Shown: piece by piece, positions 1,752 to 19,890 of the stretch
Position numbering within the stretch: the first letter of the stretch is position 1
How the letters are laid out: every line of letters begins with the position of its first letter
NCBI GenBank assembly: GCA_017614995.1
Contig: JAGAAX010000028.1
Span: forward strand, 4,641 to 28,640
Length of the DNA: 24,000 nt
Reading direction: 5' to 3'
Origin: Spirochaetaceae bacterium
Lineage (GTDB): Bacteria; Spirochaetota; Spirochaetia; Treponematales; Treponemataceae
Translations under genes and position numbers: made by a program
The notes under the pieces: generated by a model
What the model was told of the DNA's origin: nothing
What the model saw: only the letters and a program-made list of their open reading frames with translations
The model's database searches: none

Positions 1752-1752
1752 A

Positions 1753-2664: not shown

Positions 2665-2681
2665 AATCTTCCTCTTGAGGT

Positions 2682-2740
2682 GTCATTCCGAATTTATTTC
2701 GGAATCCTAATTATAGATCCTGAAACAAGTTCAGGATGAC
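2682..2740. repeat. Head-out doublet of GTCATT-hairpin (REP-like) repeats
   Basis: 2682..2706 is GTCA-TTCCGAA-tttat-TTCGGAA-TC. 2716..2740, read on the minus strand, is GTCA-TCCTGAA-cttgt-TTCAGGA-TC. The spacer is 9 nt. Confidence 0.85.
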
Positions 2741-2749
2741 GGTTATTTA

Positions 2750-3553
2750 TTAAAATAGTTCATACAGCAAAATGTAATATTTGATTTTATCCCAGTCAGG
2801 TTTGATGCCAAGAGCATCAAATAATAACTCGGCCTTAAAATCAGAATAAATCTTTTTGCCCCAGGTTCCGTCTGCGTTGTGTTTAAGGCTTCGATAGCAG
2901 AGTGCAATGTCCAGCCATTTGTCGCCAGCACCAGTATCACCAAGGTCAATGAAACCGCCAGGCTTGTTGCCATCTATAAAAATATTTGGCAAACAACAAT
3001 CTCCGTGAGACAAAACCGGCTCATATGTCGGGCGGTTTGCTTCCAGCCATTCAAGCAATTCCACAGGATTTTCAAAACCAGCAGGACCAAAGGTTTCTGG
3101 CTCAGCGTCATCCACATCTATAAGATTGTTTTCAACACGATATCTTGCTTCTTTAAGCTTATCTTCAAGCGTTATTTTGCGAGGGCAGTCAGAAATATCT
3201 ACACTCCACAAAAGCTTAAGAGCCTCGGCAAGATGTTGGCAAAGCTCATTTGGCCGTGACATATAGTAATCATCACAGCTCATAATGCCGGGAACCTTAC
3301 TCATAAGAAGGTATTGAAGACCAGTTGCTTCATCCTTTTCATAAGCAATAACTTTTGGAACCGGAATCTTTCCTTCCAGCCAGCGCATCACCTTTACAGT
3401 TTCATCATTTTTCGTAGAAGCTTTTTCTGTCTTGAGCACACAGTCATCAAACATCAGCACCTTTGCCTGCGACTTTCCGATATCATCAGACGTGTAATTT
3501 TTGCCCAAGACAAGTGCTTTGATTTTTTTCGGCAGATTAAAATCTTCAATCAT
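2750..3553 (-). CDS. aph(3'): Aminoglycoside 3'-phosphotransferase family kinase, APH(3')
   Basis: 267 aa with the Brenner/catalytic motif SHGDCCLPNIF, the activation motif GFIDLGDTGAGDKWLDIALCYRS, and C-terminal tail LGIKPDWDKIKYYILLYELF. From memory, that tail is almost identical to the APH(3')-IIIa tail (LGIKPDWEKIKYYILLDELF). Confidence 0.9.
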   Translation of the reverse strand: MIEDFNLPKKIKALVLGKNYTSDDIGKSQAKVLMFDDCVLKTEKASTKNDETVKVMRWLEGKIPVPKVIAYEKDEATGLQYLLMSKVPGIMSCDDYYMSRPNELCQHLAEALKLLWSVDISDCPRKITLEDKLKEARYRVENNLIDVDDAEPETFGPAGFENPVELLEWLEANRPTYEPVLSHGDCCLPNIFIDGNKPGGFIDLGDTGAGDKWLDIALCYRSLKHNADGTWGKKIYSDFKAELLFDALGIKPDWDKIKYYILLYELF

Positions 3554-3562
3554 AATTAGTCC

Positions 3563-4246
3563 TTAAGAAAAAGACATCAAGTCATCAAGCGTATCTGCTG
3601 TATCTACAGGAACCCAGTGACCTTCCATGCAAATCTCCGGATTAAGCGATTTGATTTTAGCTTCGAGTTTCTTGCACTTTTCCTTGTCTTTGATTCCTGT
3701 CATAAAATCATCGCAAGTGGAGTCTCCCATGAAAAGCACTTTGTCTTCAGCCACATATACAAGTGTAGAATCCTCAGTGTGCGGAGCCTCACTTTCAACA
3801 ATTCGAACTGTGCAGCCGCCAAGGTCAAGTGTCATTTCGCCGGAAAACAGCATGTCTGCCAAAGAGACAACCACTTTTTTGCCATCTGCGTATTCTTTTC
3901 TGATGCTTTCATCAAGAGCAAGAAATTCGCTTGTGCCGTTTGCTTCAATTTTTCGCCTGCATTCAACGAGGTGCTTGTTTGTCCTTTCATTTGCAAGACA
4001 TAAGCCGTTTACAGCGTGCATACCAAAAGTGTGATCCCAGTGCCAGTGGGTAAGCACAGTAAGCGAGGGCAGTGGCAGACGTGCTTTCTCTAAAAGAGCG
4101 TAAAATTCTTTTACATGAGATGCAGAATGTCCTGCATCTATAGCTAAGCTCCAGTTTTTGCCTTTTACATAACCAAGGTTCGGACGGTCTCTTTCAGATT
4201 CAAACGGCATGTACCAGATATGTTCAGATAATTTTTTAAGTTCCAT
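3563..4246 (-). CDS. MBL-fold metallo-hydrolase
   Basis: Metal-binding motif LTHWHWDHTFG (HxHxDH), later MGDS and EGHW. Preferred start is the ATG at 4246, with GGAG 6 nt upstream. An alternative ATG at 4258 overlaps the upstream stop (TAATG). The track start at 4300 overlaps the upstream gene. Confidence 0.85.
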   Translation of the reverse strand: MELKKLSEHIWYMPFESERDRPNLGYVKGKNWSLAIDAGHSASHVKEFYALLEKARLPLPSLTVLTHWHWDHTFGMHAVNGLCLANERTNKHLVECRRKIEANGTSEFLALDESIRKEYADGKKVVVSLADMLFSGEMTLDLGGCTVRIVESEAPHTEDSTLVYVAEDKVLFMGDSTCDDFMTGIKDKEKCKKLEAKIKSLNPEICMEGHWVPVDTADTLDDLMSFS

Positions 4247-4257
4247 TTTTTTCTCCA

Positions 4258-4707
4258 TTAGTTGCCAAAATATTTGGAAAAAGCCACATTTGTCGTACAC
4301 TCAACAAATCCGTTTTTCTTATAAAAATGATAAGCCGGAACATTCGAGTCTGTCAGCAAAAAAATCTGCTTTAGCCCAAGTTCTTTAATTGCTTTTTCAA
4401 TTTCAGCAATAAAGAAAGAGCCTGCACCTGAGCCCTGCCGCTCGGTCTTTATACAGAATTCGTTGATGATATATTCTGTTCCCGAATACCAGTGCTTTAT
4501 ATACCCCAGAGCAATTCCAATGAGCTCATCATCATCGTACAAACCGTAAGTCAAAGAATAGCCCTGACCGACAAGGTCATTTATGTACATATCAAGCTGG
4601 TTTTTGTCCGACCAGTCATCATTCCAGGGTTCTTTTGTAAAGACGCCGGTAAATACGCTTGTAATAGCTTCTTTATCTTCTATATAGAGTCTTTTTAGTT
4701 TAAGCAT
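4258..4707 (-). CDS. GNAT family N-acetyltransferase
   Basis: 149 aa with FCIKTERQGSGAGSFFIAEIEKA (motif A) and AYHFYKKNGF (motif B). Confidence 0.85.
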   Translation of the reverse strand: MLKLKRLYIEDKEAITSVFTGVFTKEPWNDDWSDKNQLDMYINDLVGQGYSLTYGLYDDDELIGIALGYIKHWYSGTEYIINEFCIKTERQGSGAGSFFIAEIEKAIKELGLKQIFLLTDSNVPAYHFYKKNGFVECTTNVAFSKYFGN

Positions 4708-4726
4708 TTTCTTCTCCCGTTAAACC

Positions 4727-5377
4727 TTACGCTTCCGCTTTAAGCGTATAAGTATGATCCCAGTTTTTGAGCACTTCTACTTTTGAAAAGCCGGCTGCCA
4801 GCAATGCCTCTTTTTCATGCTCAACAGTCAGCGGTGTATCATAGTGATAGAACTCACCGTCGGGCAGATTCTGCTCTTTTCGCAAACGGAGCAGTTCCTG
4901 CCTCCGGGCGGTTTCTTCTTCTTCAGTCATTGCAAAATAATCTGTCAGAATGAAATAACCGCCGCTTTTCAAGGCAGCCTTTAGTTTGGTGTAAAGCGGA
5001 ATCTTTTCTTCTTTTGTGAAATGATGCAGTGATTCAACCGACACAGCCGCGTCAAACAGAGCCTCGCCGAAAGGCACTTCAAAGTATGAGCCCAAAATCA
5101 GAGTAATATCTTTGCCGCTGAATTTCTTTTTCAGTGCATTGAGCATACCGGCTGCAAGATCTATGCCGGTTACCTTTGCTTCCGGATTCAGGGCAAAGAA
5201 CTCGTCAAGCTCAAGCCCTGTGCCGCAGCCTAAATCCAAAATCTTAGCGCCGGTTTCTTTAGGCAGACACCCTGCCGTAAACGGATAAAACTCCTGTGCA
5301 AAGTCTATAGTATTAAGCTGATGCTCTTCGTAGCCTTCCGTACGGGCATCAAAAAAATCTCCCATTTTTTCTAGCAT
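4727..5377 (-). CDS. Class I SAM-dependent methyltransferase
   Basis: 216 aa with motif I KILDLGCGTGLE, an acidic post-I residue (TGIDLA), and a Rossmann-type layout. Confidence 0.85.
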   Translation of the reverse strand: MLEKMGDFFDARTEGYEEHQLNTIDFAQEFYPFTAGCLPKETGAKILDLGCGTGLELDEFFALNPEAKVTGIDLAAGMLNALKKKFSGKDITLILGSYFEVPFGEALFDAAVSVESLHHFTKEEKIPLYTKLKAALKSGGYFILTDYFAMTEEEETARRQELLRLRKEQNLPDGEFYHYDTPLTVEHEKEALLAAGFSKVEVLKNWDHTYTLKAEA

Positions 5378-5401
5378 TTTCTTTTTTTCCTTTATTAAGT
5401 T

Positions 5402-6103
5402 TTACAAACAATATACAGCGTATTCTGACAAAGCTTTAAAACCATGACTTTTTGCCAGATTTGCAGATACCGGGTTCTGCGCGTCCCAATGCATTGTCAG
5501 CTTCTTTTTGCAGCACTGACGCATAACTTCAGCGGTGCAGTGGTCTGCAAGCCCGCGTTTCTGATGTTCAGGTTCTGTAGAAATATCAAGCTCTACATGG
5601 CCGTTATAAGTCAGAAAACTTGAAGCTGCTGCAACAACCTTTCCGCCGTAAAGTACCGCAGCGCCAACGCCTGTTTTTGAAAAATCCTGAAAATCTCTGT
5701 AGTTTTTTCCATGATCAAAAGGATGTGCTTCAAAAACCGCTTGCGTAAACGGAGTTATGCTGTAGCCTTCAGGCAACGGCTTTAACTGCTTTTGTGATTC
5801 ACTGCAAAGCGGCGACATAAGTTCCCGGCGGAAAGCAATTTGAATGTGCAGAGCTTTGATAAAGCTTTCCCATTCAGTGCTCATGCATACAAGCCAGTTT
5901 GCATAAAACAGTTCCTGATGTTCTTCAAAAAAACGCCTGTCCGGTTTTCCGCATAAATATGTGAATAAAGCTTTGCAGACGCAGCCTTCAGAATAAGAGA
6001 AAACAGACCCGAACTGTCCTGCTTTGCAGGCACTTAATAAGAGCGGCTCTTCTGTGAGAATTCCGCTGCTATTTTTATTCCAGATTTCAAATTTGTTTTC
6101 CAT
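5402..6103 (-). CDS. GNAT-like acetyltransferase (C-terminal GNAT fold)
   Basis: 233 aa. The C-terminal ISTEPEHQKRGLADHCTAEVMRQC...NLAKSHGF resembles GNAT motif A/B. The N-terminal half is not recognised. Confidence 0.65.
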   Translation of the reverse strand: MENKFEIWNKNSSGILTEEPLLLSACKAGQFGSVFSYSEGCVCKALFTYLCGKPDRRFFEEHQELFYANWLVCMSTEWESFIKALHIQIAFRRELMSPLCSESQKQLKPLPEGYSITPFTQAVFEAHPFDHGKNYRDFQDFSKTGVGAAVLYGGKVVAAASSFLTYNGHVELDISTEPEHQKRGLADHCTAEVMRQCCKKKLTMHWDAQNPVSANLAKSHGFKALSEYAVYCL

Positions 6104-6128
6104 ATTCTTTCCTTAGTTAAGCGTCTTG

Positions 6129-6752
6129 TCAGATAATTAAGCTGTTAATCTCGTTCTGCAAATTTGCAAGAAATTTTCCTGCATGAGCGCCGTCCATCTG
6201 CGTATGATGAAATTGAAACGACAGCATCAGATAATAGTGGAAAAGCTTTTTTGTGTAGCGTCCCCAAATCAGAAACGGATTATTGAAATCACTGTGCATA
6301 CCCACTGCGCCGTCAATTTCTGTATCAACAATTGCTGATGTACCGATGACCATGCAGACAGCAGATAAATCTCTGTCTGTGCAATTTTCAGCAGCTTCAG
6401 CAGTATATTTCAGATATTCCTGATTGAAGGTCACTAAATCATTTGAGAACATAATATCACAGGAATTAACTTCACCGTTTTTGTTCTTTACAATTGTATT
6501 CACCGCAATTTTATCGTACTGAATCAATTTGTCACCGACTGGAAGAATGAAAAACTCTTTTACGCAAAAAGCAGCTTTTCCAATGCAGTAATCAAGAAGC
6601 ATGTTGAACTTCAGCTTTTTCTTTCTGCTGATTTTTACAAGATTTGTGATATCAAGCTTCTTAAAAAATGTTACCATCGGATTCGGTGCTTTCAGCCAAA
6701 GTTTGTATGCCGCAGCTCTTGTTGTTTCTTCTGGTTGTATTTCTTTTGCCAT
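6129..6752 (-). CDS. cat: Chloramphenicol O-acetyltransferase family (type A CAT-like)
   Basis: 207 aa, the size of classical CATs. Catalytic signature SFQFHHTQMDGAHAGKF (HHxxxDG). The start overlaps the upstream stop as TAATG. Confidence 0.8.
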   Translation of the reverse strand: MAKEIQPEETTRAAAYKLWLKAPNPMVTFFKKLDITNLVKISRKKKLKFNMLLDYCIGKAAFCVKEFFILPVGDKLIQYDKIAVNTIVKNKNGEVNSCDIMFSNDLVTFNQEYLKYTAEAAENCTDRDLSAVCMVIGTSAIVDTEIDGAVGMHSDFNNPFLIWGRYTKKLFHYYLMLSFQFHHTQMDGAHAGKFLANLQNEINSLII

Positions 6753-7606
6753 TATCCAATCCTTTCTGAAAGCAGATTCTTAATAACCTTGGTTATTTTT
6801 GATCCGTCTTTTGCTTTGTGGTTCCAGTCAAATTGAACATCACTTCCGGCTGAGGGTTTTTCTGTTATGTTGTCACCAAGGCGGCACGGAATAAGAAGCT
6901 CCCAATAGCGCACCATATACACGTCATCTTTTACAGATTCCACAACCCCGAGATGTTCTTTAAAAATCTGCATAAAGCCTTCCTGAACCTTTACTTTGCG
7001 GTAAGACGGAAATTCTCTGCTGATTTTTTCGAGCGCGCCTTGGTCTGAAATCTTGGCAAAATCTGCGCTTTCTACAAAATGCCCCTTGAATGAAGCAAAA
7101 TCATCATTTAGCGGAAAGCACATATACGCGTCGTAGCTGTTGCCTTCGCCGTCAGTTATGCCGAAGTCTGCACAGCGTTTAAAGCCAAACTTAGGGTAAT
7201 AGTCTGGTTCTCCGGCAAGAATTATTCCGGCAATTCCGGCGTTTTTGGCAAGCTGTATAGTTTCACGGAGCAAAGCACCGCCTATGTCATTTCCTTCTAG
7301 GGTTGGTTCAACCGCCAGCGGCCCGAGCATTGCAACTTCTTTTTTGCGGGTGTCGGCTTTACCGTCAGTGTCCGGGGCGTCTGTAATCCAGGCTTTTGTG
7401 TAATAAACAGCTCCGGCAATTTTCCCGTCAACTTCGGCAATACGGCTTATTTCAGGCAGATAGTCTGCCGAAGCTCTTATGACTCTGAGCATATTGTGCT
7501 CAACACAGCCCGGAAAATACTTGTTCCAGAAGCTCCGCATGGTCATTAATTCGGTCTTTTTATAGTCATCAGGCCGCTCCGGTCTGATAATCAAGTTTTT
7601 AAGCAT
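6752..7606 (-). CDS. GNAT family N-acetyltransferase (YhbS-like core with C-terminal extension)
   Basis: 284 aa with LGPLAVEPTLEGNDIGGALLRETIQLAKNAGIAGIILAGEPDYYPKFGFK, characteristic of the predicted-acetyltransferase YhbS-like group. First gene of the co-directional array. Confidence 0.8.
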   Translation of the reverse strand: MLKNLIIRPERPDDYKKTELMTMRSFWNKYFPGCVEHNMLRVIRASADYLPEISRIAEVDGKIAGAVYYTKAWITDAPDTDGKADTRKKEVAMLGPLAVEPTLEGNDIGGALLRETIQLAKNAGIAGIILAGEPDYYPKFGFKRCADFGITDGEGNSYDAYMCFPLNDDFASFKGHFVESADFAKISDQGALEKISREFPSYRKVKVQEGFMQIFKEHLGVVESVKDDVYMVRYWELLIPCRLGDNITEKPSAGSDVQFDWNHKAKDGSKITKVIKNLLSERIG

Positions 7607-7767
7607 TTTTTTAGCCCTTATAAATTGCCCGCCGCATTCTTGGTTTGCTAAAAGCCGTTTTCCGCGGCGGATTTATCCATTATATTTTTGTGTGCCGTCT
7701 GCTGTAAATAAAGAATTAGTTTAAAAGCTTATTGTCAGGCTTCAATCTATTGATGATAACCGGTACA

Positions 7768-7776
7768 ATCATAACA
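7768..7776 (-). promoter_or_regulatory. Candidate extended -10 promoter (TGtTATGAT) for the 12-gene array
   Basis: The minus strand reads tgttatgat about 160 nt upstream of the first start codon (7606). No good -35 is seen. Confidence 0.3.
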
Positions 7777-7921
7777 CATTATTCAATTGAATGAGCTAAT
7801 AATTCGTGCAATTTCAAATTTTTAGCTTATCTTGTTCCCAATACACCCTAAATATGATATTCTGAAGCCTGTAAGCCCGAACTTGCTTCGGGTTTGATTC
7901 AATTAAAACAAGGAACTTACA

Positions 7922-10150: not shown

Positions 10151-10160
10151 ATAATAAACT

Positions 10161-10316
10161 GTCATTGCGAGCGCAGCGAAGCAATCTCGGGTTTGCGACT
10201 AGGCTGGTTCTACGGAATTAGCTAAATCGGCAAACCCTGCCAATTTACCTTCGCGTAAATTGGTAAAGACTTACACATGTGCAGATTGCCACGTCGCTTT
10301 GCTCCTCGCAATTGAC
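10161..10316. repeat. Composite 156-bp mosaic element bounded by inverted GTCATTGCGAG...GCAATC arms
   Basis: The left arm at 10161..10186 is gtcattgcgagcgcagcgaagcaatc. The right arm at 10284..10316 reads gtcaattgcgaggagcaaagcgacgtggcaatc on the minus strand. The interior carries the GGGTTTGCG / TGGTTC / GGCAAACCCTG-hairpin modules. Confidence 0.8.
10229..10270 (+). repeat. GGCAAACCCTG-hairpin module, copy 1
   Basis: ggcaaaccctg-CCAATTTAC-cttcgc-GTAAATTGG-taaagac. Confidence 0.8.
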
Positions 10317-10333
10317 GTATAAATGGGAGAAAA

Positions 10334-11635
10334 ATGAAAAAAGTGAACAAAATCGAAAAAACGCTCGGCATTTTTATGTTGGCTTCGGCTGTAATTTTCG
10401 GCAGTTGTACAAAAGCAAAGCCGACAGCCGAAAACACAAAAACAGCAGAAGCACAGCCAGCCCAGACAGGACAGGTTGAAGCGGTTTCAGAAAATCAGCC
10501 GGAAAACGTCTCGCCTTCAATGGAAAAATTTGCCAAACAGCGCGAAGGTCTTTACGAAAAAGGCGGCATCGCTTTGTATGAAGCCGGTGAGATTTATGAT
10601 GTACCTAAAGAAATTGAAAAACAGTCTGTCAGAATCTTTGGTGTTGAAGGTGATTACTTTCCGCCGGATGAACCTTATAAAGATATTTTAATAACATTCA
10701 TTATTGAAGATACTAATCTTCATGTTATGCTTCCTACAGCTGTTTATGAAAAAACGCCTGAATTATATATTGAAGCAGAGCATGACGGCAAAACCTTTAT
10801 TTGCAAAGACAAAAAACCTCTAAACTTTAATGAAGAAAAAAACGCAGGTTTAATAGGCTATCATGCTTCTGTTTATTTTGAGAACCGCAATATCTGTTCA
10901 AAAAGCGATGAATGGAAATTCCGTCTTAGAGATTGTCAGAATGACGAACTTGTTGCCGAACAGACACTGACAAGAAAAGCTCTTTCATGCGGGTATGTTG
11001 TTTATTCAGAAGAATACGAAAATCCGTTTGTGCTAAATGAAAACCGCGGTATTAAACCTAATACAAAGTATCATTTGATTTATAGGGGAAAAGGCGGTTC
11101 TTTTCCAGATGAGGGAACTATGGCTGTTTTTTCTTACGGTTATCATACAGATGGAAAACTGCTTTATGTTCCTTTTCTTGGGGTTAAAACAAAAACTGAT
11201 ATAGACGGCATTTGTTCTTTTGATTTTTCAATAAGAGAGCCCGGACAGTATAAGCTTGATTTTTACGATGTTCCGTCTGGAAAAATAACATATACGTCAT
11301 TTTTTGATTTTATTCATGTTTCAAACTTAGGCGAAATTGAATATATAGAAAATGCAGGTACAGAATGGAAGGTGAATTCGCCTGAAGGTCTTAGGCTTAG
11401 AGATTCGCCATGGGGCGAAAAAGTCGGGCTTCTGCAGGACGGAACTGAATTAATTCAGACAGAAAATGCGCATTATCCGTTCTATGATTTTATTGACGGT
11501 CATCATGGCTTTTGGATTCCAGTACGGCAGAAAAATCCGCCTGAAACTTCTGATGTTCAGGAAAAGCCTAAAATTTTCTGCGCCAGCGGTGAAGAAACTG
11601 ACGGCTGGGTATTTTCCGGCTTTTTGACAAAATAA
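10334..11635 (+). CDS. Lipoprotein with C-terminal SH3b-like domain, function unknown
   Basis: The N-terminus MKKVNKIEKTLGIFMLASAVIFGSC has a lipobox-type cysteine. The C-terminal WKVNSPEGLRLRDSPWGEKVGLLQDGTEL resembles bacterial SH3 domains. GGGAG lies 4-5 nt upstream of the ATG. Confidence 0.7.
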   Translation: MKKVNKIEKTLGIFMLASAVIFGSCTKAKPTAENTKTAEAQPAQTGQVEAVSENQPENVSPSMEKFAKQREGLYEKGGIALYEAGEIYDVPKEIEKQSVRIFGVEGDYFPPDEPYKDILITFIIEDTNLHVMLPTAVYEKTPELYIEAEHDGKTFICKDKKPLNFNEEKNAGLIGYHASVYFENRNICSKSDEWKFRLRDCQNDELVAEQTLTRKALSCGYVVYSEEYENPFVLNENRGIKPNTKYHLIYRGKGGSFPDEGTMAVFSYGYHTDGKLLYVPFLGVKTKTDIDGICSFDFSIREPGQYKLDFYDVPSGKITYTSFFDFIHVSNLGEIEYIENAGTEWKVNSPEGLRLRDSPWGEKVGLLQDGTELIQTENAHYPFYDFIDGHHGFWIPVRQKNPPETSDVQEKPKIFCASGEETDGWVFSGFLTK

Positions 11636-11748
11636 CAACTCCGGTAGATTCTTGTTGATGTATATTGCTATAGATTGCAGTTTTTCTGGCGGAAAGTAGT
11701 GAATTGCGGACGCGGACTGCCTCATGGCTTGCCATTAGAGCAGGACGT

Positions 11749-11771
11749 CGGACGCAAGTAACGGATTTCCG
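11749..11771 (-). repeat. 23-nt repeat, inverted copy of 19666..19688
   Basis: cggacgcaagtaacggatttccg is the exact reverse complement of cggaaatccgttacttgcgtccg at 19666..19688. Confidence 0.9.
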
Positions 11772-11806
11772 ACAGGCAAAATCACATTCTAAAAGTTGAA
11801 AATATG

Positions 11807-11815
11807 TGATATAAT
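11807..11815 (+). promoter_or_regulatory. Candidate extended -10 promoter (TGaTATAAT) for udp
   Basis: Perfect TATAAT at 11810..11815, preceded by TG at 11807..11808. It would place the hairpin doublet at 11854..11928 in the udp 5' UTR. Confidence 0.45.
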
Positions 11816-11853
11816 ACGCAAAGCTTGCATTGTCGCTGACGTGTCGAGAGTGT

Positions 11854-11928
11854 GTCATTGTCGGGCATGACCCGACAATCTTCGCTAGACAAATCGGGTA
11901 AGATTCCCTGGTCAAGCCAGGGAATGAC
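11854..11928. repeat. Head-out doublet of GTCATT-hairpin repeats
   Basis: 11854..11880 is GTCA-TTGTCGGG-catga-CCCGACAA-TC. 11902..11928, read on the minus strand, is GTCA-TTCCCTGG-cttga-CCAGGGAA-TC. The spacer is 21 nt. Confidence 0.85.
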
Positions 11929-11947
11929 AGTTCAAAAGGAGATTGAA

Positions 11948-12727: not shown

Positions 12728-12738
12728 AAGACGCAATA

Positions 12739-13194: not shown

Positions 13195-13210
13195 AGTGCC
13201 GCTGAAAAAT

Positions 13211-13286
13211 GTCATTCTCGGGCTTGACCCGAGAATCTCTAAAACTTCATCTTCTTGTAGATTGCCGTGTCACGCACGGCAATGAC
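13211..13286. repeat. Head-out doublet of GTCATT-hairpin repeats
   Basis: 13211..13237 is GTCA-TTCTCGGG-cttga-CCCGAGAA-TC. 13260..13286, read on the minus strand, is GTCA-TTGCCGTG-cgtga-CACGGCAA-TC. The spacer is 22 nt. The doublet lies between convergent gene ends. Confidence 0.85.
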
Positions 13287-13323
13287 ACAAAAGAGGACTT
13301 TTCCCGTCATTTTTGTAGCAGGT

Positions 13324-13779
13324 TTACGCCTGTTTCTTTAAGCTTTCATTGATTGATTCTGTTTCTTTTCTGTAATAAATGGTAAAACTTATCCACATTA
13401 TTACATAAATTATGATGAAAATAACAAACCATATAATTGTGCTTCTTGTTGTGTGAGGAAACCAGCCGCATAAAAAGCCGGAAATATACATTACAACCGA
13501 AGTAATGACAAAATGAAGCACTGTCTGTGCAAGAAGGCTCCAGTTGTCAAGCTCAAAAATAACTGTAGATGAAGCAAATGTTATTCCAATTATTCCGAAC
13601 AGAAAGTACTGAATGATAACAGCAGCCATTTCTGTATTTGTGTGTGTACTAAGATAAGCAGAAATAGGGTAGAAATTTCCGTTACCTGCTAAAAGTGACT
13701 CAAAAATCAGAATTGTTTCACCAATAAATACACCGATCATAAATCCTAAAGATGCTCTTTTAATTATTTCTTTCAACAT
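13324..13779 (-). CDS. Small 4-TM membrane protein (DUF3021-like) partnered with the LytTR regulator
   Basis: 151 aa with four hydrophobic helices and a WSLLAQTVLHF motif I associate with DUF3021 proteins. AGGAG lies 7 nt upstream of the ATG. It starts 10 nt after the LytTR gene stop. Confidence 0.7.
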   Translation of the reverse strand: MLKEIIKRASLGFMIGVFIGETILIFESLLAGNGNFYPISAYLSTHTNTEMAAVIIQYFLFGIIGITFASSTVIFELDNWSLLAQTVLHFVITSVVMYISGFLCGWFPHTTRSTIIWFVIFIIIYVIMWISFTIYYRKETESINESLKKQA

Positions 13780-13789
13780 AGTATTACTC

Positions 13790-14260
13790 CTAATTGCGAA
13801 CCATATTAAGCTGGTTCTTAATCTTTGTCATATATCTTCTTGAAACTATTGCAGTTTTTCCGTCTGTAAAGTTTATGCGGACAACACCTGTTATTGACAT
13901 GTCCAGTGCAGTTACTTTTGAAAAATTTGCAATATCCGTATTTGAAATTCTTATGAAGTCTGTCCAGCCGCAGCTTTCGGCAAGCTGTTCAAATTCATAG
14001 AGCCTCATTTTCAAAAGCAGTGTTTCTTTTTCAGTTTCAACATAAACTTTTTTGTTCATGCTGTAGATTCTGAAAATATCGCCCTGCCTGACTTGAATGC
14101 AGTAATCGCCGTCCCAGCCGGAAATTACCGCCATTCTGCCGGTTTCGTCCATTCTGCGGATTTTCTCGGCGACCGCGGTAATACCGGAGGTTTCGGTTTC
14201 TGCGTGAATGACACAGAAAGGCTTTCCGCATTTTTCGATTTTGATTTCTGTGCGCAACAA
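13790..14260 (-). CDS. Stand-alone LytTR-family DNA-binding regulator (no receiver domain)
   Basis: 156 aa. The C-terminal 95 aa match the LytTR pattern (FIRISNTDIANFSKVTALD...VRINFTDGKTAIVSRRYMTKIKNQL). TTG start with AAGGAG just upstream; the exact start is uncertain. Confidence 0.8.
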   Translation of the reverse strand: MLRTEIKIEKCGKPFCVIHAETETSGITAVAEKIRRMDETGRMAVISGWDGDYCIQVRQGDIFRIYSMNKKVYVETEKETLLLKMRLYEFEQLAESCGWTDFIRISNTDIANFSKVTALDMSITGVVRINFTDGKTAIVSRRYMTKIKNQLNMVRN

Positions 14261-14308
14261 GTTCTCCTTTTGCTAGTTTTTGCAACAGCAGGGTTTTATT
14301 ATAGATAA

Positions 14309-14336
14309 ACTATAACTTGAATCTCCCTGATTGCAA
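14309..14336 (-). promoter_or_regulatory. Candidate sigma70-type promoter of the LytTR operon
   Basis: The minus strand reads TTGCAA (14336..14331), a 16-nt spacer, then TATAGT (14314..14309). It lies about 50 nt upstream of the TTG start. Confidence 0.4.
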
Positions 14337-14375
14337 AGCCAGTATAGCAGGCTTGATTTTGCAGGTACTTTTCCC

Positions 14376-14408
14376 CGCGACAAGTGGCTGATTATCGCGA
14401 TAACTGGC
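14376..14408. promoter_or_regulatory. Imperfect 13-bp direct repeat, 20-bp period, in the divergent control region (candidate regulator binding site)
   Basis: CGCGACAAGTGGC (14376..14388) and CGCGATAACTGGC (14396..14408) match at 11 of 13 positions. The second copy overlaps the palindrome TTATCGCGATAA (14392..14403). Confidence 0.35.
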
Positions 14409-14458
14409 GTTTCAGGTCTTTTTTTTTAGCATGAATTATGATATAGCTTTTATAAAGC

Positions 14459-16054
14459 ATGAAAAGAAACTTTAATTTAAGCATAAGCCTGCAAATTTCG
14501 ATTTTTCTCATAATTGTTGCATTTATTCCGGTTGCAATTACGATGGCGCTTGAAACTTATGAGAAGCAGCAGCTTTTGATGATGGAAAGTTCAAACGTCC
14601 AGCAGGGGCGTCTTGTTTCTGCGGCTCTTGCAACAAATGAATCAGAGACAATCGATAAGGATTTTGCAATTGCTTTTCTTAAGAACATGAACGGCAGGTT
14701 TGATTGCCGCATCCGCATTCTTGACAAAAACGGAATGATGGTTGCCGATTCAAGTTCTGTTTCAGAAAATATTGCGGAGACTTCAGCTTCTGTTTCAAAG
14801 CGGACGGAATCAAGCCAATATGAGCTTTTAAAATCGCCGGAGCAGTCTTTTATTTACCGTTTGTTTTCTTTTCCTATCCGTATATATAGAAAGTATTTAA
14901 GAGAGCCGGTAGTTCCTTATGAAACTGCTGATTTTTATGCGAATAAGTCAGTTTTTGACGGCGATGAAATCAAATCTGCTTTAGACGGAAAATACGGAGC
15001 TGTTACAAGAATTTCTTCCGGCGGGCAGGTGAGTGTTACGCTTTATTCGGCAATTCCTGTTATTAAGAACGAAAAAATCTGCGGCGTTGTTCTTGTGAAC
15101 AGATCGACTTACAAAATTCTTCAGAATCTGTACGAGCTGCGCCTTGATTTGGGCAAAATCTTTTTGCGCTCGTTAATCGTTGTAATTTTGATTGCAGTTT
15201 TTCTTGCTTTCAGAATCTCGTATCCGCTTAGAAAGCTTGCAAGGCAGGCGGCGGAATGTGCGGATAAAAAGGGCAGAATCTTTTTTACAGATTTTACCGG
15301 CAAAAAACGCCACGATGAAATCGGTGAGCTTTCAAGAGCTTTTACCTCGCTTATAGACCGCCTGAACCGGCGCATAAAATTCAGCCAGGCTTTTTCTTCA
15401 GATATTGCGCACGAATTCAAGAATCCGCTTACGGCAATTAGAACTTCGGCAGAGCTGCTTGGAAGCAGTGATTTGTCTGAAAATGAAAAAACTGAGCTTG
15501 CTTCTGCAATTGTTGATGAAGTCTCTCATTTGCAGACTTTGCTAAACGGCGTGCGGAACATTTCAAAAATTGATGCCGGAATAATCGAAGAGGAGCATAC
15601 AAGCGTTCCGGTGAACAGTTGTGCAAAGCATATAATTGAACGGCTGAAAAACAAATATCCGTCTGTGAATATTGAGTTTTCTTCAAATAAAGATGAGATA
15701 AATCTTCCATTGCCGCAGGATTATTTTGACAGAGTTGCGGAAAATCTTATTGACAATGCAATGAGTTTCGGCTCAAAAGTTTTTGTTTCATCGGTTTTAG
15801 AGGGCGGCAGGTTTTGTTTTGCTGTTGAAGATAACGGCAGAGGCGTAAACAGTGAGCAGCTTTCAAAGATTTTTGAGCGTTTTTATTCTGAACGCAGCGA
15901 AAACCACAATGATTTTTCGCACACAGGGCTTGGGCTTTCAATTGTAAGAGCAATAGCAGATTCTCTTGAAGGCGAGATTTGTGTTTCAGCAAGCGAAAAA
16001 CTCGGCGGTGCGAAGTTCTGTTTTGCAATTCCTATAAAAATTCCCATAAAATAA
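14459..16054 (+). CDS. Two-component sensor histidine kinase, CreC-like
   Basis: 531 aa with an N-terminal TM helix, an extracytoplasmic domain, a second TM helix and a HAMP-like linker. H-box is FSSDIAHEFKNPLTAI; N/G boxes are LIDNAMSF, VEDNGRGV and GLGLSIV. The sensor segment ALDGKYGAVTRISSGG...ICGVVLVNRS and IFERFYS parallel E. coli CreC as I recall it. Confidence 0.9.
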   Translation: MKRNFNLSISLQISIFLIIVAFIPVAITMALETYEKQQLLMMESSNVQQGRLVSAALATNESETIDKDFAIAFLKNMNGRFDCRIRILDKNGMMVADSSSVSENIAETSASVSKRTESSQYELLKSPEQSFIYRLFSFPIRIYRKYLREPVVPYETADFYANKSVFDGDEIKSALDGKYGAVTRISSGGQVSVTLYSAIPVIKNEKICGVVLVNRSTYKILQNLYELRLDLGKIFLRSLIVVILIAVFLAFRISYPLRKLARQAAECADKKGRIFFTDFTGKKRHDEIGELSRAFTSLIDRLNRRIKFSQAFSSDIAHEFKNPLTAIRTSAELLGSSDLSENEKTELASAIVDEVSHLQTLLNGVRNISKIDAGIIEEEHTSVPVNSCAKHIIERLKNKYPSVNIEFSSNKDEINLPLPQDYFDRVAENLIDNAMSFGSKVFVSSVLEGGRFCFAVEDNGRGVNSEQLSKIFERFYSERSENHNDFSHTGLGLSIVRAIADSLEGEICVSASEKLGGAKFCFAIPIKIPIK

Positions 16055-16151
16055 CACATTTCCGCCATAATTCTGACACATTTAATAAATAAGATTCTCT
16101 TATAGAAAATCAACGCAGACAAAAAAATTATGATTTTCAGGAGATTTTATT

Positions 16152-17417
16152 ATGAAAAACAAGAACATTGTTTCAAAATTGGTTTTTATTGGCGCAGTAA
16201 TTCTGGTGCTGCTTGTGGCAAATGTTGTAATCGGTTCAAAAATAACAGACCGCAAAAACGTTTATGAAGGTGCTGTTGCAGACATCAATTCTTCTGCCGG
16301 CGGAACATTCAATTCTGAAGGTTTTGCAATTGAAATACCGTATGAAGTTTATAACACAAATTATCTTGGCGAGCGCACCACAAAACAGAAAGACGGCGTT
16401 TACCGCATTTACCCTGAATCTGTAGATTATGAATGTAGTTTCAGTTCAGAAAAACGCACTTTGGGCATATATTCTTCGCCGGTTTTTACAGGGCTTTTGA
16501 ATGTTAATGCCAGTTTCAAAAATGTGACACTTCCGCAGAATACACCGTCTACTATTTATTACACTGAAAAGGCTTATTTAATCTATAAGATTTCTGACAG
16601 AAATATCATGGAAAGACCTGTTTTTAATGTGAATAAAACTGAAAACGAAACTTATTACAAAAATAATGGAATATGCTGCAATCTTGCCAATTATGTAGTC
16701 AAGCCGATAAGCGAATACAAAATTTCAGCTTCTTTTAAAATAAGAGGCGCAGAAAACATGAACTTTTGGCTTAATTCATCAAGCACAACGCTTGCTATAA
16801 ATGGCGACTGGGCTTCGCCCGGCTTTACTGGCTATTCATACCTGCCTGATGAACGCACTTTGAGTGAAGACGGTTTTTCTGCTGTATGGAATATTCCGTT
16901 TGACGCAGGTGACGGCAGTCACAGCATCGGTTTTAATTTTATTCAGCCGGTTAATCTTTATATGAAGCTACAGCGGGCAAATACTTATGCGTTTTTGTTT
17001 ATAATTGTTCCGTTCATTGTGCTTTTCATGTTTGAAATTTTTGCTTCTATAAATCTTCATCCGGTGAACTATCTGCTTAGCGGTGCGGCAAGTGTGCTTT
17101 TCTTTCTGCTGCTGCTTTCACTTTCAGAGCATATATCTTTTATTTCTTCATACATAATTGGTGCAATTGCTTCTGGTGTTCTTGTCTCGCTTTATACGGC
17201 GCTGATTACAAAGAAGTATAAGCTCGGTGCGGTTATGGCTGGCATTTTCGTAATCCTTTACGGTTATCTGCTCGGCTGCCTTCAGTCAGAAGACTATGCG
17301 CTTCTTATGGGCTCAATCTTTGCCTTTGTTGTTCTTGCCGTAATCATGTTTATGACGAGCAAAATCGACTGGTCAAACTTGAAAAAAATGGAACATGCTG
17401 ATTTAATTGAATCATGA
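16152..17417 (+). CDS. creD: Cell envelope integrity / inner membrane protein CreD
   Basis: 421 aa with an N-terminal TM helix, a large extracytoplasmic part, and a C-terminal multi-TM block. That block carries the CreD-typical YAFLFIIVPF...LHPVNYLLSGAASVLFFLLLLSLSEHISF. AGGAG lies 8 nt upstream of the ATG. Confidence 0.9.
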   Translation: MKNKNIVSKLVFIGAVILVLLVANVVIGSKITDRKNVYEGAVADINSSAGGTFNSEGFAIEIPYEVYNTNYLGERTTKQKDGVYRIYPESVDYECSFSSEKRTLGIYSSPVFTGLLNVNASFKNVTLPQNTPSTIYYTEKAYLIYKISDRNIMERPVFNVNKTENETYYKNNGICCNLANYVVKPISEYKISASFKIRGAENMNFWLNSSSTTLAINGDWASPGFTGYSYLPDERTLSEDGFSAVWNIPFDAGDGSHSIGFNFIQPVNLYMKLQRANTYAFLFIIVPFIVLFMFEIFASINLHPVNYLLSGAASVLFFLLLLSLSEHISFISSYIIGAIASGVLVSLYTALITKKYKLGAVMAGIFVILYGYLLGCLQSEDYALLMGSIFAFVVLAVIMFMTSKIDWSNLKKMEHADLIES

Positions 17418-18130
17418 CTGTTGCTTTAGTAGATGACGAAAAAAATGTCCGTCTTGCAGTCCGCACAGCACTTACCAAAGATGGTTTTGATGTAATTGAA
17501 TTTGCAGACGGACAGCAGGCTTTTGATTATGCAAGCAGAGACAATTCCAAAATGACGGTGCTTCCAGATATTTTTGTTCTGGATATTATGATGCCGGTGA
17601 TGGACGGAATTACTCTGCTTAGAAAGCTCCGCGAATCAGGCATAAAAACGCCTGTTATTTTTCTTACAAGCCGCGATGAGGAATTTGACAAGATTCTTGG
17701 GCTTGAACTTGGTGCAGATGATTATCTTTGCAAGCCTTTTTCTATAAAGGAACTTATCGCAAGAATTCATGTGATTTTAAGGCGCTGTAATGCTTCTGGT
17801 TCTGTGGGAGCTGCGCCTTCTAAGATATTGAAATCAAACGGCATTGAGCTTAATCTGCTTTCTTATACCGCAAAAATCTGCGGAAAAGATGTTGAGCTAA
17901 CTGTAACGGAATTCAGAATCTTGCAAAGTTTTATTGAGCATAAGAACGAGGTTCTTTCGCGGGAGCAGCTTATCGAAATTGCGTATCCGCAGGACACCTA
18001 TCTGAATGACAGGGCAGTGGACTGCCACATAAAGCGCCTGAGAAAGAAGATCCCGGAAAACTGCATAGAAACAATCTACGGCCTCGGCTACAAATATACC
18101 GGGTTTGCGCTTGGGCTTAATCTACAATAA
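17414..18130 (+). CDS. OmpR/PhoB-family response regulator
   Basis: Receiver domain (VDDE...LDIMMPVMDG...LTSRDEE...GADDYLCKPF) plus a winged-helix output (LTVTEFRILQSF...VDCHIKRLRKK...GLGYKY). The start overlaps the creD stop (ATGA). Confidence 0.9.
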   Translation: MTVALVDDEKNVRLAVRTALTKDGFDVIEFADGQQAFDYASRDNSKMTVLPDIFVLDIMMPVMDGITLLRKLRESGIKTPVIFLTSRDEEFDKILGLELGADDYLCKPFSIKELIARIHVILRRCNASGSVGAAPSKILKSNGIELNLLSYTAKICGKDVELTVTEFRILQSFIEHKNEVLSREQLIEIAYPQDTYLNDRAVDCHIKRLRKKIPENCIETIYGLGYKYTGFALGLNLQ

Positions 18131-18140
18131 ATGTTGGTTC

Positions 18141-18183
18141 GGCAAACCCTGCCAATTTGCATTTCATGCAAATTGGTAAAGAC
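18141..18183 (+). repeat. GGCAAACCCTG-hairpin module, copy 2
   Basis: ggcaaaccctg-CCAATTTGCA-tttca-TGCAAATTGG-taaagac. Confidence 0.8.
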
Positions 18184-18247
18184 TGGCACTATACGCTGAA
18201 AAGTACCGAATGTCATTGCCCGGCAGGTGTACAGACGCGCGCACTTC

Positions 18248-18332
18248 GTCATTGCGAGGAGCACAGCGATGAAGCAATCTGCTCCTAAAGGTTGTGCACA
18301 TCGTTGGATTGCTTCGCTTCGCTCGCAATGAC
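18248..18332. repeat. Head-out doublet of GTCATTGCGAG...GCAATC arms
   Basis: 18248..18279 is gtcattgcgaggagcacagcgatgaagcaatc. 18307..18332 reads gtcattgcgagcgaagcgaagcaatc on the minus strand. Confidence 0.85.
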
Positions 18333-18341
18333 GAGGGGCGC

Positions 18342-18373
18342 AAAAAAAAGCCTGCTCGAAATGAACAGGCTTT
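18342..18373 (-). terminator. Rho-independent terminator of luxS
   Basis: The minus strand reads AAAGCCTGttcatttcgaGCAGGCTTTTTTTTG, a stem AGCCTG/CAGGCT (extendable) followed by U8. It lies 28 nt after the luxS stop. Confidence 0.8.
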
Positions 18374-18400
18374 AGGTTTGGTATAGAATTGCGCGCTTCT

Positions 18401-18913
18401 TTATGAATCAAAGAACTTGCCTTTTTCTGTGTCAAGGCGCTCGGCTTTCGGATATTCGTAGCATGGCGAAGTCTTCAAAATTTCAGCATATTTTGCGGCT
18501 TCGTAGCGTGCATAATGAATGTTGTGCATGAGGTAGTTTCCGCAGTTTACTGCATCTGTGCCAGGCACTTTCTCGTTGAAGTTTGCGGCATATTCAAAAG
18601 CTTCAATCATAAGCTTGCCGATTACTTCGCATGGCTGCTGGTCTTTGATGATGAGATAGAAGCCTGTAAGGCAGCCCATCGGTCCCCAGTAGATAATGCT
18701 GTCTTTCCACTGTGCGTTGTTGCGGAGGTATGTAGCAATAATATGCTCAAGTGTATGCATTGCCGCAACATCAACGCAAGGCTCAATGTTCGGTTTTTTC
18801 ATGCGGATATCATAAGTTGTGATTTTGCTGCCGTTAAGAACATCTGTTCTTGAGATGTAAACGCCCGGCAGAAGGCGCGAATGGTCAACTGAAAAGCTTG
18901 GAATCAAATCCAT
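18401..18913 (-). CDS. luxS: S-ribosylhomocysteine lyase LuxS
   Basis: 170 aa with FSVDH, the metal-binding motif MHTLEHIIATYLR, and GPMGCLTGFY. AGGAG lies 6 nt upstream of the ATG. Confidence 0.95.
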   Translation of the reverse strand: MDLIPSFSVDHSRLLPGVYISRTDVLNGSKITTYDIRMKKPNIEPCVDVAAMHTLEHIIATYLRNNAQWKDSIIYWGPMGCLTGFYLIIKDQQPCEVIGKLMIEAFEYAANFNEKVPGTDAVNCGNYLMHNIHYARYEAAKYAEILKTSPCYEYPKAERLDTEKGKFFDS

Positions 18914-18935
18914 AATAATCTCCTATATGAAAAGC

Positions 18936-18944
18936 AGTATAACA
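18936..18944 (-). promoter_or_regulatory. Candidate extended -10 promoter (TGtTATACT) for luxS
   Basis: The minus strand reads tgttatact, between the upstream terminator hairpin and the luxS SD. Confidence 0.35.
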
Positions 18945-18960
18945 AGTTATTGTAATAAAT

Positions 18961-18997
18961 AAAAGCCCTGTAATGTGTGCATATTTGCAGGGCTTTT
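18961..18997 (-). terminator. Rho-independent terminator after the P-loop kinase gene
   Basis: 10-bp stem AAAAGCCCTG/CAGGGCTTTT with a 17-nt loop. On the minus strand it is followed by a U-rich stretch (uuuuauuuauu). It starts 6 nt after the stop at 19003. Confidence 0.6.
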
Positions 18998-19002
18998 ATA
19001 GA

Positions 19003-19617
19003 TTATGTTTGGCCTGATGCTTTATCATTGTCGGGCGTGACCCGACAATCTCTCGTATAATGACAGGCTGGTGCACATGCGCGCGCTTGTTGCAAGATAT
19101 GGTCTGCCATTTTGTCGGCATCAAACATGAAAGTGTTTGAAATTTCAAGATTTGGAATATCGAATTTTTTGCAGTCATCTTTGAATTCTTTGCTGCACAA
19201 AATGAGACGCTCCAAATCAAGTTCTTCGGGCATACGCTTTTCGATTGCACTTGCTTTGTCAGCAACAAGGTCAAAATGTTCTCGCAGATATTCTTCGCTC
19301 ATTGTTATGAATGTGCAGTAAATTTTTGAAAGATAATCCTGTGTAAAGCTTTCTTTCCATTCACCCGGAATGTAGCAGCCTTCTATAATGAGATTCTGGT
19401 TGTTTTCAATTGCGGTTTTAATAATCTCCGCGGCGAACGGCCACAAAAAGTAGCGCATTTCGTAGTCGTCTTCTACGGTCAGCTCTGTGCGCTTTGTGCG
19501 GATAAAACCCATTTTCAGGTGGTCAAGGCTCATATACGGAAAGCCTGTGCGTTCAAGCAGCTTTTGCGACACAAGTGTTTTCCCCACATGGCTCGACCCG
19601 CCGATTAAAATAATCAT
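19003..19617 (-). CDS. P-loop NTPase/kinase (2-phosphoglycerate-kinase-like AAA ATPase)
   Basis: Walker A motif MIILIGGSSHVGKT and the DHLKMGFIR motif seen in small P-loop kinases annotated as 2-phosphoglycerate kinase-like. The last ~20 codons are translated from a hairpin repeat (19024..19050), so the true C-terminus is uncertain. Confidence 0.7.
   Translation of the reverse strand: MIILIGGSSHVGKTLVSQKLLERTGFPYMSLDHLKMGFIRTKRTELTVEDDYEMRYFLWPFAAEIIKTAIENNQNLIIEGCYIPGEWKESFTQDYLSKIYCTFITMSEEYLREHFDLVADKASAIEKRMPEELDLERLILCSKEFKDDCKKFDIPNLEISNTFMFDADKMADHILQQARACAPACHYTRDCRVTPDNDKASGQT
19024..19050 (+). repeat. Single GTCATT-type hairpin repeat (aTCA variant) inside the 3' end of the kinase ORF
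   Basis: aTCA-TTGTCGGG-cgtga-CCCGACAA-TC. The stem is identical to the copy at 11854. Confidence 0.8.
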
Positions 19618-19665
19618 AGTTGGTTCTCGGTAAATCCTTTAGTAATTGAGCAGTAACTTTTCTGG

Positions 19666-19688
19666 CGGAAATCCGTTACTTGCGTCCG
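19666..19688 (+). repeat. 23-nt repeat, partner of 11749..11771
   Basis: cggaaatccgttacttgcgtccg, preceded by ttttctggcggaaa (19658..19671). That 14-mer also occurs as a direct copy at 11682..11695. Confidence 0.9.
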
Positions 19689-19779
19689 TCTCACTGCTCG
19701 CGTGGGATAATTGGTGGTTAGACTCGCTTCGCTCGCTCCCCGGGTTTGCGTTTGGTCTAATCAATGAATAAGCTTATGT

Positions 19780-19823
19780 GGCAAACCCTGCTAGTTTTCA
19801 CTTTGTGAAAACTAGTGTAGGTC
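19780..19823 (+). repeat. GGCAAACCCTG-hairpin module, copy 3 (different stem)
   Basis: ggcaaaccctg-CTAGTTTTCAC-tttg-TGAAAACTAG-tgtaggtc. Confidence 0.75.
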
Positions 19824-19843
19824 TGTGCAAAGCACGCGCCTTT

Positions 19844-19890
19844 GTCATTGCGAAAATCGGTCACTGAGCGGAGTCGAAGTGACCGATTTT
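19844..19890 (+). repeat. GTCATTGCG-led hairpin with a 12-bp stem
   Basis: gtcattgcg-AAAATCGGTCAC-tgagcggagtcgaa-GTGACCGATTTT, with stems at 19853..19864 and 19879..19890. Confidence 0.75.

Follow-up and report, generated by a model that had tools for sequence, protein, structure and literature searches.

CGTC-tagged hairpin repeats resembling Ssn-related motifs in the chromosome of a Treponema-like spirochaete

Hairpin copies of the window and their described relatives

Repetitive extragenic palindromic (REP) elements have been sorted into a GTAG-tagged and a CGTC-tagged superfamily (Di Nocera, De Gregorio & Rocco 2013, BMC Genomics 14:522; PMC3733652). Here we compare with the second of these the hairpin repeats found in 24,000 nt of a Spirochaetaceae bacterium (contig JAGAAX010000028.1, positions 4,641 to 28,640; this whole stretch is called the window below). 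Members of the CGTC superfamily carry an unpaired tag, often TGTC and with CCTC allowed, on stems of 8-9 bp that almost always start with A-T and T-A. Their loops are of 4-5 nt, with longer "loops of different length" in a few species, and a short unpaired 3' tail, consensus CCA, begins with C. Most form inverted dimers of a single geometry, frequently heterodimers, whose halves are ~20-100 bp apart. They are intergenic, the genes on either side being co-directional or convergent, and now and then a copy lies at the 3' end of a gene. Their range covers five phyla, including Spirochaetes (Turneriella parva), and Neisseria dRS3 and Rickettsia RPE-4 and RPE-6 are members (PMC3733652). The partner of the Neisseria NTS hairpin and of the related hairpins called Ssn-related motifs (SRMs) is SsnA, a 94-aa single-domain GIY-YIG protein (cd10448; Chenal et al. 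2025, Nat Commun 16:2388; PMC11893778). NTS is CGTCATTCCCGCGMAVGCGGGAATCYRG, and NTS and related SRM hairpins flank ssnA genes. SsnA binds the hairpin as single-stranded DNA (ssDNA) only, and only on the tagged strand, and cuts a few nucleotides upstream of it; the three bases before the palindrome (GTC) matter most for the cut, the C after the palindrome matters most for binding, and the loop is replaceable. In Neisseria, SsnA lowers transformation by NTS-bearing DNA (PMC11893778).

We consider it highly probable that the hairpins of the window are CGTC-tagged REP elements, that is SRMs, which work at the DNA level with an Ssn GIY-YIG nuclease as their partner. They are a known element in a new host, not a new kind of element. 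Read directly, the copies come to 11 tagged hairpins and one truncated copy. The sequence-only reading that preceded this analysis had counted at least 12: the 11 tagged hairpins stand where it placed them, and the copy at 19845 is incomplete. Seven hairpins are of a short type, five with a 9-bp stem and a 5-nt loop (CTTGA, CGTGA or CATGA) and two with an 8-bp stem and a 5-nt loop, and four are of a long-loop type (GTCATTGCGAG..GCAATC):

2682-2706, plus strand: left half of doublet 1, 8-bp stem and 5-nt loop, tGTC-ATTCCGAA-tttat-TTCGGAAT-CCT; ssDNA fold -6.6 kcal/mol, z -4.4
2716-2740, minus strand: right half of doublet 1, 8-bp stem and 5-nt loop, cGTC-ATCCTGAA-cttgt-TTCAGGAT-CTA; spacer 9 nt
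10161-10186, plus strand: left half of doublet 2, long-loop copy, tGTC-ATTGC-GA-[GC GCA GC]-GAA-GCAAT-CTC
10284-10316, minus strand: right half of doublet 2, decayed long-loop copy, cGTCAATTGCGAGGAGCAAAGCGACGTGGCAATC (GTCAATTGCG..GTGGCAATC); spacer ~97 nt
11854-11880, plus strand: left half of doublet 3, 9-bp stem and 5-nt loop, tGTC-ATTGTCGGG-catga-CCCGACAAT-CTT; ssDNA fold -9.6 kcal/mol, z -5.0
11902-11928, minus strand: right half of doublet 3, 9-bp stem and 5-nt loop, tGTC-ATTCCCTGG-cttga-CCAGGGAAT-CTT; spacer 21 nt
13211-13237, plus strand: left half of doublet 4, 9-bp stem and 5-nt loop, tGTC-ATTCTCGGG-cttga-CCCGAGAAT-CTC
13260-13286, minus strand: right half of doublet 4, 9-bp stem and 5-nt loop, tGTC-ATTGCCGTG-cgtga-CACGGCAAT-CTA; spacer 22 nt, convergent genes around
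18213-18230, plus strand: remnant 5' half of a short-type copy (GTCATTGCCCGGCAGG), without 3' arm
18248-18279, plus strand: left half of doublet 5, 32-nt form of the long-loop type, cGTC-ATTGC-GAGGAGCACAGCGATGAA-GCAAT-CTG
18307-18332, minus strand: right half of doublet 5, 26-nt form of the long-loop type, cGTC-ATTGC-GA-[GC GAA GC]-GAA-GCAAT-CCA; spacer 27 nt, convergent genes around
19024-19050, plus strand: single copy, 9-bp stem and 5-nt loop, mutated tag ATC (TATC) in place of GTC
19845-19890, plus strand: truncated or hybrid copy, the tag and ATTGCGA fused to a different 13-bp hairpin

The published stem rule (8-9 bp, A-T then T-A, loop of 4-5 nt) fits all seven short copies, and the tag, the 5-nt loops, the tail C, the predominance of heterodimers, the gene context and the presence of a copy at a gene 3' end also match the CGTC superfamily. 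The window copies are intergenic, between co-directional or convergent genes, with the sole exception of 19024-19050, and none lies in the two divergent promoter regions. That exception sits inside the 3' end of the open reading frame (ORF) 19003-19617 (minus strand) and encodes its last residues (..RDCRVTPDND..). Rickettsia RPE-4 and RPE-6 likewise have copies inside coding sequence, but the window has only this C-terminal one and no in-frame mid-gene insertion. Three differences from the published superfamily are apparent: the host is a Treponema-like gut/rumen spirochaete, absent from the list of Di Nocera et al. and thereby a new host for CGTC-REP/SRM hairpins; the tail reads CT[T/C/A] where theirs reads CCA; and three formats (9/5, 8/5 and long-loop) coexist in one genome, whereas the paper only touches on longer loops. 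The coexistence of three formats, which is also new, would imply a tolerant nuclease or several paralogues. Compared with the Ssn/NTS system, whose frame is CGTCAT-palindrome-ATC-Y, the positions critical for SsnA are those conserved in the window copies; NTS, given above, may be set beside the copy at 11902-11928, tGTCATTCCCTGGCTTGACCAGGGAATCTT. The elements of both are directional and belong to the DNA level, and the tags point outward around ssn genes as they do in the window doublets.

Two of the incomplete copies have counterparts elsewhere. The same arrangement as that of the remnant at 18213-18230 stands upstream of a long-type copy in locus L204, and the 13-bp hairpin of 19845-19890 contains a module, GGTCACTGAGCGGAGTCGAAGTGACC, that recurs in related genomes. 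The recurring module GGTCACTGAGCGnAGTCGAAGTGACC is the palindrome at 19859-19884 and is also present in loci L128, L143, L146 and L209; its loop resembles the GAGCG.AG.CGAA loop of the long-type hairpins, so that the module, too, may belong to this superfamily.

Stem covariation, doublets and ssn genes

The hairpins exceed what composition would give. The window holds six perfect hairpins with a GTC tag (stem >=8, loop 3-7, C directly after) against a mean of 0.02 in 100 dinucleotide shuffles, and GTCATT-N(10-40)-AATC matches nine times against 2.19 in shuffles, none of the 100 reaching nine. Half of the window's perfect hairpins with stems of >=8 bp are members of the tagged family. For covariation, we aligned 26 distinct copies from the window and from 410 kb of related spirochaete DNA (alignment A2), chosen by tag, loop and tail only, with pairing ignored to avoid circularity. 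Stem mismatches number at most one in 23 of the 26 copies, 92.7% of the cells are paired, and both sides have changed at six of the nine pairs. Compensatory cells number 39, against 11.9 in shuffles (0/500 reach the observed value) and 3-7 when the pairing register is slid by 1-3 columns. The compensatory stem changes that the sequence-only reading had described are thus borne out, and selection on the hairpin structure, not only on the sequence, is supported. The invariant columns are G2 T3 C4 A5 T6 ... T27 C28, and part of the loop is also constant. GTC is present in all 26 copies and [C/T]GTC in ten complete window copies; after the palindrome, C is invariant and the next bases are mostly T[T/C/A], with CCA or CCT at 18307 and 2706. 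A conserved frame therefore exists, as had been claimed, but GTCA-stem-loop-stem'-TC has to be corrected to [C/T]GTC-A..T-C with the tag unpaired.

All five doublets have the plus copy on the left and the minus copy on the right, with the GTC tags outward, as first read, and the near-equal spacers of doublets 3 and 4 were also read correctly. The same bias is found in 433 kb of Treponema-like DNA, where 14 of 20 adjacent pairs have their tags outward, and in viral contigs (34/51 among the matches listed). Every doublet is a heterodimer whose halves have different stems, for example GTCGGG and CCCTGG.

REP/BIME and REPIN elements with RAYT, an IS200/IS605-type Y1 transposase, are likewise tagged ssDNA hairpins set as inverted pairs; their repeats flank an enzyme gene that is present once, and non-autonomous derivatives exist (E. 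coli, Pseudomonas). That the window hairpins are classical elements of this kind, mobilised by RAYT, would account for the shared design (tagged hairpin, inverted dimers, intergenic sites, high copy number), and RAYT genes occur in many CGTC-bearing species (PMC3733652). We nevertheless hold this to be very unlikely. The RAYT system has a GTAG tag (GT[AG]G), whereas that of the window is [C/T]GTC (GTC-A); its enzyme, an HUH/Y1 transposase, cuts and rejoins; and the halves of a REPIN pair with each other, whereas those of the window doublets are not complementary, as the sequence-only reading had observed, so the long REPIN hairpin cannot form. A Y1_Tnp domain is present in none of the window genes, which agrees with the transposase-free window first described. 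CGTC repeats are reported to lack an associated transposase, Di Nocera et al. having found no tyrosine transposase gene flanked by them (PMC3733652), and the hairpin formats of the window flank ssn genes, not RAYTs. The initial likening to REP/BIME elements rather than to classical miniature inverted-repeat transposable elements (MITEs) agrees with the match to the CGTC-tagged superfamily. The RAYT proposed as mobiliser has to be given up, since RAYT partners GTAG-tagged REPs and CGTC repeats are without RAYT association (PMC3733652). The REPIN analogy survives in part: a relation of doublets to an enzyme cassette is seen in Rhizobium, but the enzyme is Ssn.

The link to ssn comes from other bacteria. 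An Ssn-type protein from a viral contig, used as query, retrieved thousands of ~99-aa PF01541 proteins. Further homologues lie on large plasmids and on mislabelled chromosomes, and one of them is the N. gonorrhoeae orthologue. Both the 9-bp/CTTGA and the long-loop format of the window flank ssn genes elsewhere, with tags outward as in the window doublets, and the outward geometry is also found in Neisseria, Azospirillum and Rhizobium:

Rhizobium sp. CIAT894, ssn flanks: CGTC-ATCCCAGGG-cttga-CCCTGGGAT-CCA, plus copy 24 nt upstream and minus copy 35 nt downstream
Sphingobium and N. aromaticivorans, ssn flanks: versions of the hairpin with a cttga loop
Azospirillum and Neisseria, ssn flanks: 8-bp/4-nt versions
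Planktothrix, ssn flanks: tGTC-ATTCT-GAGTGAAACGAA-GAAT-CTCT, of long-loop design

In the Rhizobium sp. CIAT894 plasmid (L173, NZ_CP020952.1 585410-587679), an SRM-ssn-SRM cassette is followed by two doublets (952-1887), which retain the sub-terminal sequences of the cassette and have ~25 nt in place of the ssn ORF. At least there, the doublets are internally deleted, MITE-like derivatives of the ssn cassette. That doublets may be such deletion derivatives is new and bears on how CGTC repeats spread. On Planktothrix agardhii plasmid p1 (L171, NZ_LR882964.1 17859-20113), ssn and tandem long-loop hairpins stand between an MmeI-type restriction-modification gene and DISARM drmA, which is a defence-island context.

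In the mechanism that we propose, the strand reading 5'-[C/T]GTC-hairpin-C would fold when single-stranded, and an Ssn-family nuclease (cd10448), a small protein with GIY-YIG as its single domain, would bind the folded hairpin and cut the ssDNA some nucleotides to the 5' side of the tag. The hairpins would act as DNA, not as RNA. What is conserved in the window copies, namely the GTC tag, the stem foot of A-T and T-A, and the C that follows the palindrome, coincides with the positions that mutagenesis has found important for cleavage and binding by SsnA. The rest of the stem and the loop would be free to drift as long as pairing is kept, hence the covariation. Outward-tagged doublets share the geometry of the SRM-ssn-SRM cassette. 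The analysis shows that the hairpins belong to the family by sequence and anatomy, that their stems covary, that their orientation is biased and that these formats stand beside ssn genes in other genomes. We infer that the spirochaete encodes an Ssn acting on these copies; the consequence could be selfish spread or, by analogy with Neisseria, ssDNA restriction of incoming DNA.

Several points weigh against assigning the hairpins to an Ssn nuclease. The published SRM pattern HGTCWYN(0-2)YYVSBRHN(0-5)WNVSBRGN(0-2)RNCYNB, built by hand from 29 genomes (PMC11893778), leaves 11 of the 12 window copies outside, owing to stem composition and not to the frame; its one match (13210-13240, the copy at 13211-13237) compares with 0.05 in shuffles. 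A GIY-YIG nuclease cuts but does not join, and the spread of copies by it is an inference in the published accounts too. Covariation in a DNA palindrome can also come from copying of one arm to the other without selection. Lastly, no ssn homologue was found, by phmmer with a consensus and then with a hidden Markov model from eight real Ssn sequences, in the window, in the ~31 kb covered of its source contig or in fragments of related spirochaetes amounting to 410 kb. At one gene per genome of a few Mb, ~0.15 ssn genes would be expected by chance in the DNA searched, so that this lack of a match is uninformative rather than negative, and ~19% of SRM-rich genomes are without an ssn homologue (PMC11893778). 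Two protein-database searches for a spirochaetal Ssn gave only Sphingomonadales-like top hits, and NCBIfam and PADLOC gave no specific family for Ssn.

It is improbable, in our estimate, that the copies are decaying relics of a lineage that has lost the nuclease and with it all current activity. Decayed or truncated copies (10284-10316, 18213-18230, 19845-19890), the ATC tag at 19024 and the lack of ssn in the DNA searched would suit such a history, and CGTC families have been proposed as possibly heading for extinction (PMC3733652). Three other sampled contigs of the population are 99.98-100% identical to the window (0-1 mismatch), a likeness that is also compatible with inactivity and that makes strain polymorphism of the hairpins impossible to assess from them. 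Against this, most copies are perfect hairpins with intact tags, and unconstrained decay would not keep so many distinct stem variants with compensatory changes and at most one mismatch in most of the aligned copies.

Anatomy and spread of the long-loop format

The four ATTGC copies had been described as having long loops; the count of four holds, but the loops are structured. With standard DNA energy parameters these copies fold weakly (z ~0). The design, as read from the inserts of long-loop copies in viral contigs, consists of a 5-bp foot, ATTGC/GCAAT, an internal loop made of a 5' GA and a 3' GAA, and a G-C-closed apical hairpin of any sequence and length, such as GCGNAGC, GCCGAAGGC, GGGCTTGCCC, GGCTGACTTCGTCAGCC or GTCCCGATTTATCGGGAC. 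Among the matches listed, 99 distinct inserts have a mean of 2.55 closing pairs, against 0.42 when shuffled, which argues that the long-loop copies are structured and not open loops. Two RNA motifs were rejected for this type: for a kink-turn the position of the bulge is unsuitable by inspection, as is, for a hammerhead-like GA..GAA core, the CUGAUGA core, and the orientation to genes is random.

The long-loop variant is widespread. A scan of IMG/VR viral contigs (L004-L123) with GTCATTGCGAG-N(6-24)-GAAGCAATC gave at least 177 exact copies in at least 120 stretches of DNA; among the matches listed, the commonest form is exactly that of 18307-18332, and the pairs have a modal spacer of 23 nt, the unit extending as AATCCAG...CTGGATT. 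Plasmids of alphaproteobacteria, of cyanobacteria and of Halomonas carry the format too; besides Halomonas, the genera are Methylosinus, Methylocystis, Novosphingobium, Methylobacterium and Aulosira. Many of the viral contigs have portal and capsid genes, and some copies are apparently inside coding sequence. Related phages have the same site filled or empty, with single copies or doublets (e.g. L006, L039, L064 vs L121, L011 vs L013), and the hairpins must therefore be gained or lost over short evolutionary distances. Phages as carriers of CGTC/SRM hairpins are not discussed in the two papers cited (PMC3733652, PMC11893778). Both this gain and loss in phage genomes and the anatomy and wide spread of the long-loop format, which the published SRM pattern misses, are new. 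When ORFs within 300 bp of the copies at the 120 viral loci listed were clustered in a search for a mobiliser, only phage structural proteins were found.

A bolder proposal, which we regard as doubtful, is that the long-loop variant is an SRM class of its own, mobile at present and matched to a particular Ssn specificity, which crosses phyla and enters phage genomes. Head-out doublets would then be the non-autonomous, MITE-like form of a transposon SRM-ssn-SRM with a capacity for cargo, for example the family C repeat described below. If this were true, no GIY-YIG nuclease before Ssn would have been shown to drive REP-like mobile elements, and Ssn would not be only a restriction-like factor.

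The orientation of the viral copies also bears on whether the hairpins are mainly RNA elements (terminators, stabilisers of mRNA 3' ends or processing sites) whose repeats are kept for that function. The position of all window copies downstream of or between co-directional or convergent genes would suit such a role, as would the stability of the short-type hairpins, and many CGTC repeats have been argued to be transcribed (PMC3733652). Single copies in viral contigs, however, show no preferred direction with respect to the genes beside them (27 in the same direction and 26 in the opposite one, among the matches listed), and this random orientation argues against a function of the sense-strand RNA; in a doublet one half is always antisense. 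None of the copies is followed by a T-run, the tails being CTTC, CTTA, CTCT, CTAC and similar. No Rfam family matches at gathering score in the window or in 12 canonical-unit loci, and a scan by E-value gave only chance matches to microRNAs and small RNAs. LuxS is served by a canonical terminator of its own:

18347-18373: LuxS terminator, separate from the hairpin copies, adjoining doublet 5

SsnA, moreover, does not bind the RNA form of its hairpin (PMC11893778). We judge a mainly RNA-level role to be unlikely and retain the assignment to DNA-level CGTC-REP/SRM elements; the hairpins should be annotated under that label and not as terminators, RAYT-REPs or novel RNAs.

Neighbouring genes and companion repeats

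The window, with ~42% G+C, is a piece of bacterial chromosome, and a 65.8-kb metagenome contig (ENA ERZ27256937) includes its sequence at identity. Searches of the window for tRNAs and Rfam families found none. Besides the features listed here, the genes of the window include an aconitase, a predicted lipoprotein, a purine-nucleoside phosphorylase-type protein, a two-component system with CreD, LuxS and a GH3 glycosidase. Those next to the repeats are as follows:

182-7606, minus strand: run of 11 tightly packed small genes, mostly for drug-modification-type enzymes
1753-2664, minus strand: GNAT gene, and 2750-3553, minus strand: APH gene; the 85-bp gap between the two is filled by doublet 1
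10334-11635: ORF for a protein of 433 aa that matches no Pfam family and whose N-terminus is of lipoprotein type (..LASAVIFGSC..)
19842-20204, plus strand: ORF of 120 codons that begins within the truncated hairpin copy 19845-19890 and continues through repeat DNA

The run at 182-7606 (five GNATs, APH, CAT-like, MBL-fold, methyltransferase and HIT) has the look of a gene cluster for resistance or detoxification. The idea that it is an array of integron cassettes was rejected, since the gaps, mostly of 0-33 nt, leave no room for attC sites and R''/R' cores are absent. Hairpin doublets stand on both sides of the gene at 10334-11635, a bracketing of a lipoprotein-type gene that recalls the clustering of Neisseria NTS around surface-protein genes. 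The translation of 19842-20204 is of low complexity and without a family match, and this ORF is probably not a gene; both it and the tail of 19003-19617 are read-through ORFs that are to be treated as repeat-derived.

The hairpins are interleaved with other repeats, among them a repeat of ~85 nt that we call family C:

10187-10270: family C repeat
18099-18185: family C repeat
19740-19820: family C repeat

Its layout is CGGGTTTGCG, a semi-conserved stretch of 29-31 nt, GGCAAACCC-TGC, and a second hairpin with a covarying stem (CCAATTT.., CTAGTTTTC.., CAAGTTTTGC..). Family C matches almost solely Treponema-like spirochaete DNA (29 loci in the genome scan, 38 in the metagenome scan); the genome-collection matches, almost all to spirochaete metagenome-assembled genomes, are to Spirochaetales Spiro_07, Spirochaetaceae RUG14308, a Treponema sp. 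and one other, and they are the ground for taking the host to be a Treponema-like spirochaete. It often directly abuts an SRM. At 10161-10186 it begins directly 3' of the tail (AATCTC/GGGTTTGCG), and this position after an SRM tail, between the halves of a doublet (AATCTC/GGGTTYGC junction, 10186/10187 in the window), is shared by L144, while in L134, L145 and L204 family C follows the tag of an SRM (AATGAC/GGGTTTGC junction). This mosaic of hairpins with spirochaete-specific repeats is new. It may be compared with the Neisseria intergenic mosaic elements, which are likewise interleaved with other repeats, but the companion repeats here are different and lineage-specific. Literature searches by hairpin DNA strings and encoded peptides (VIASEAKQS, LDCFVA and others) found nothing relevant.

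Another repeat, TTTTCTGGCGGAAA..GTAACGGATTTCCG.., lies in inverted orientation at 11682-11775 and 19658-19699, where a 38-nt stretch is 87% complementary, and a stretch similar to it is also present in L146.

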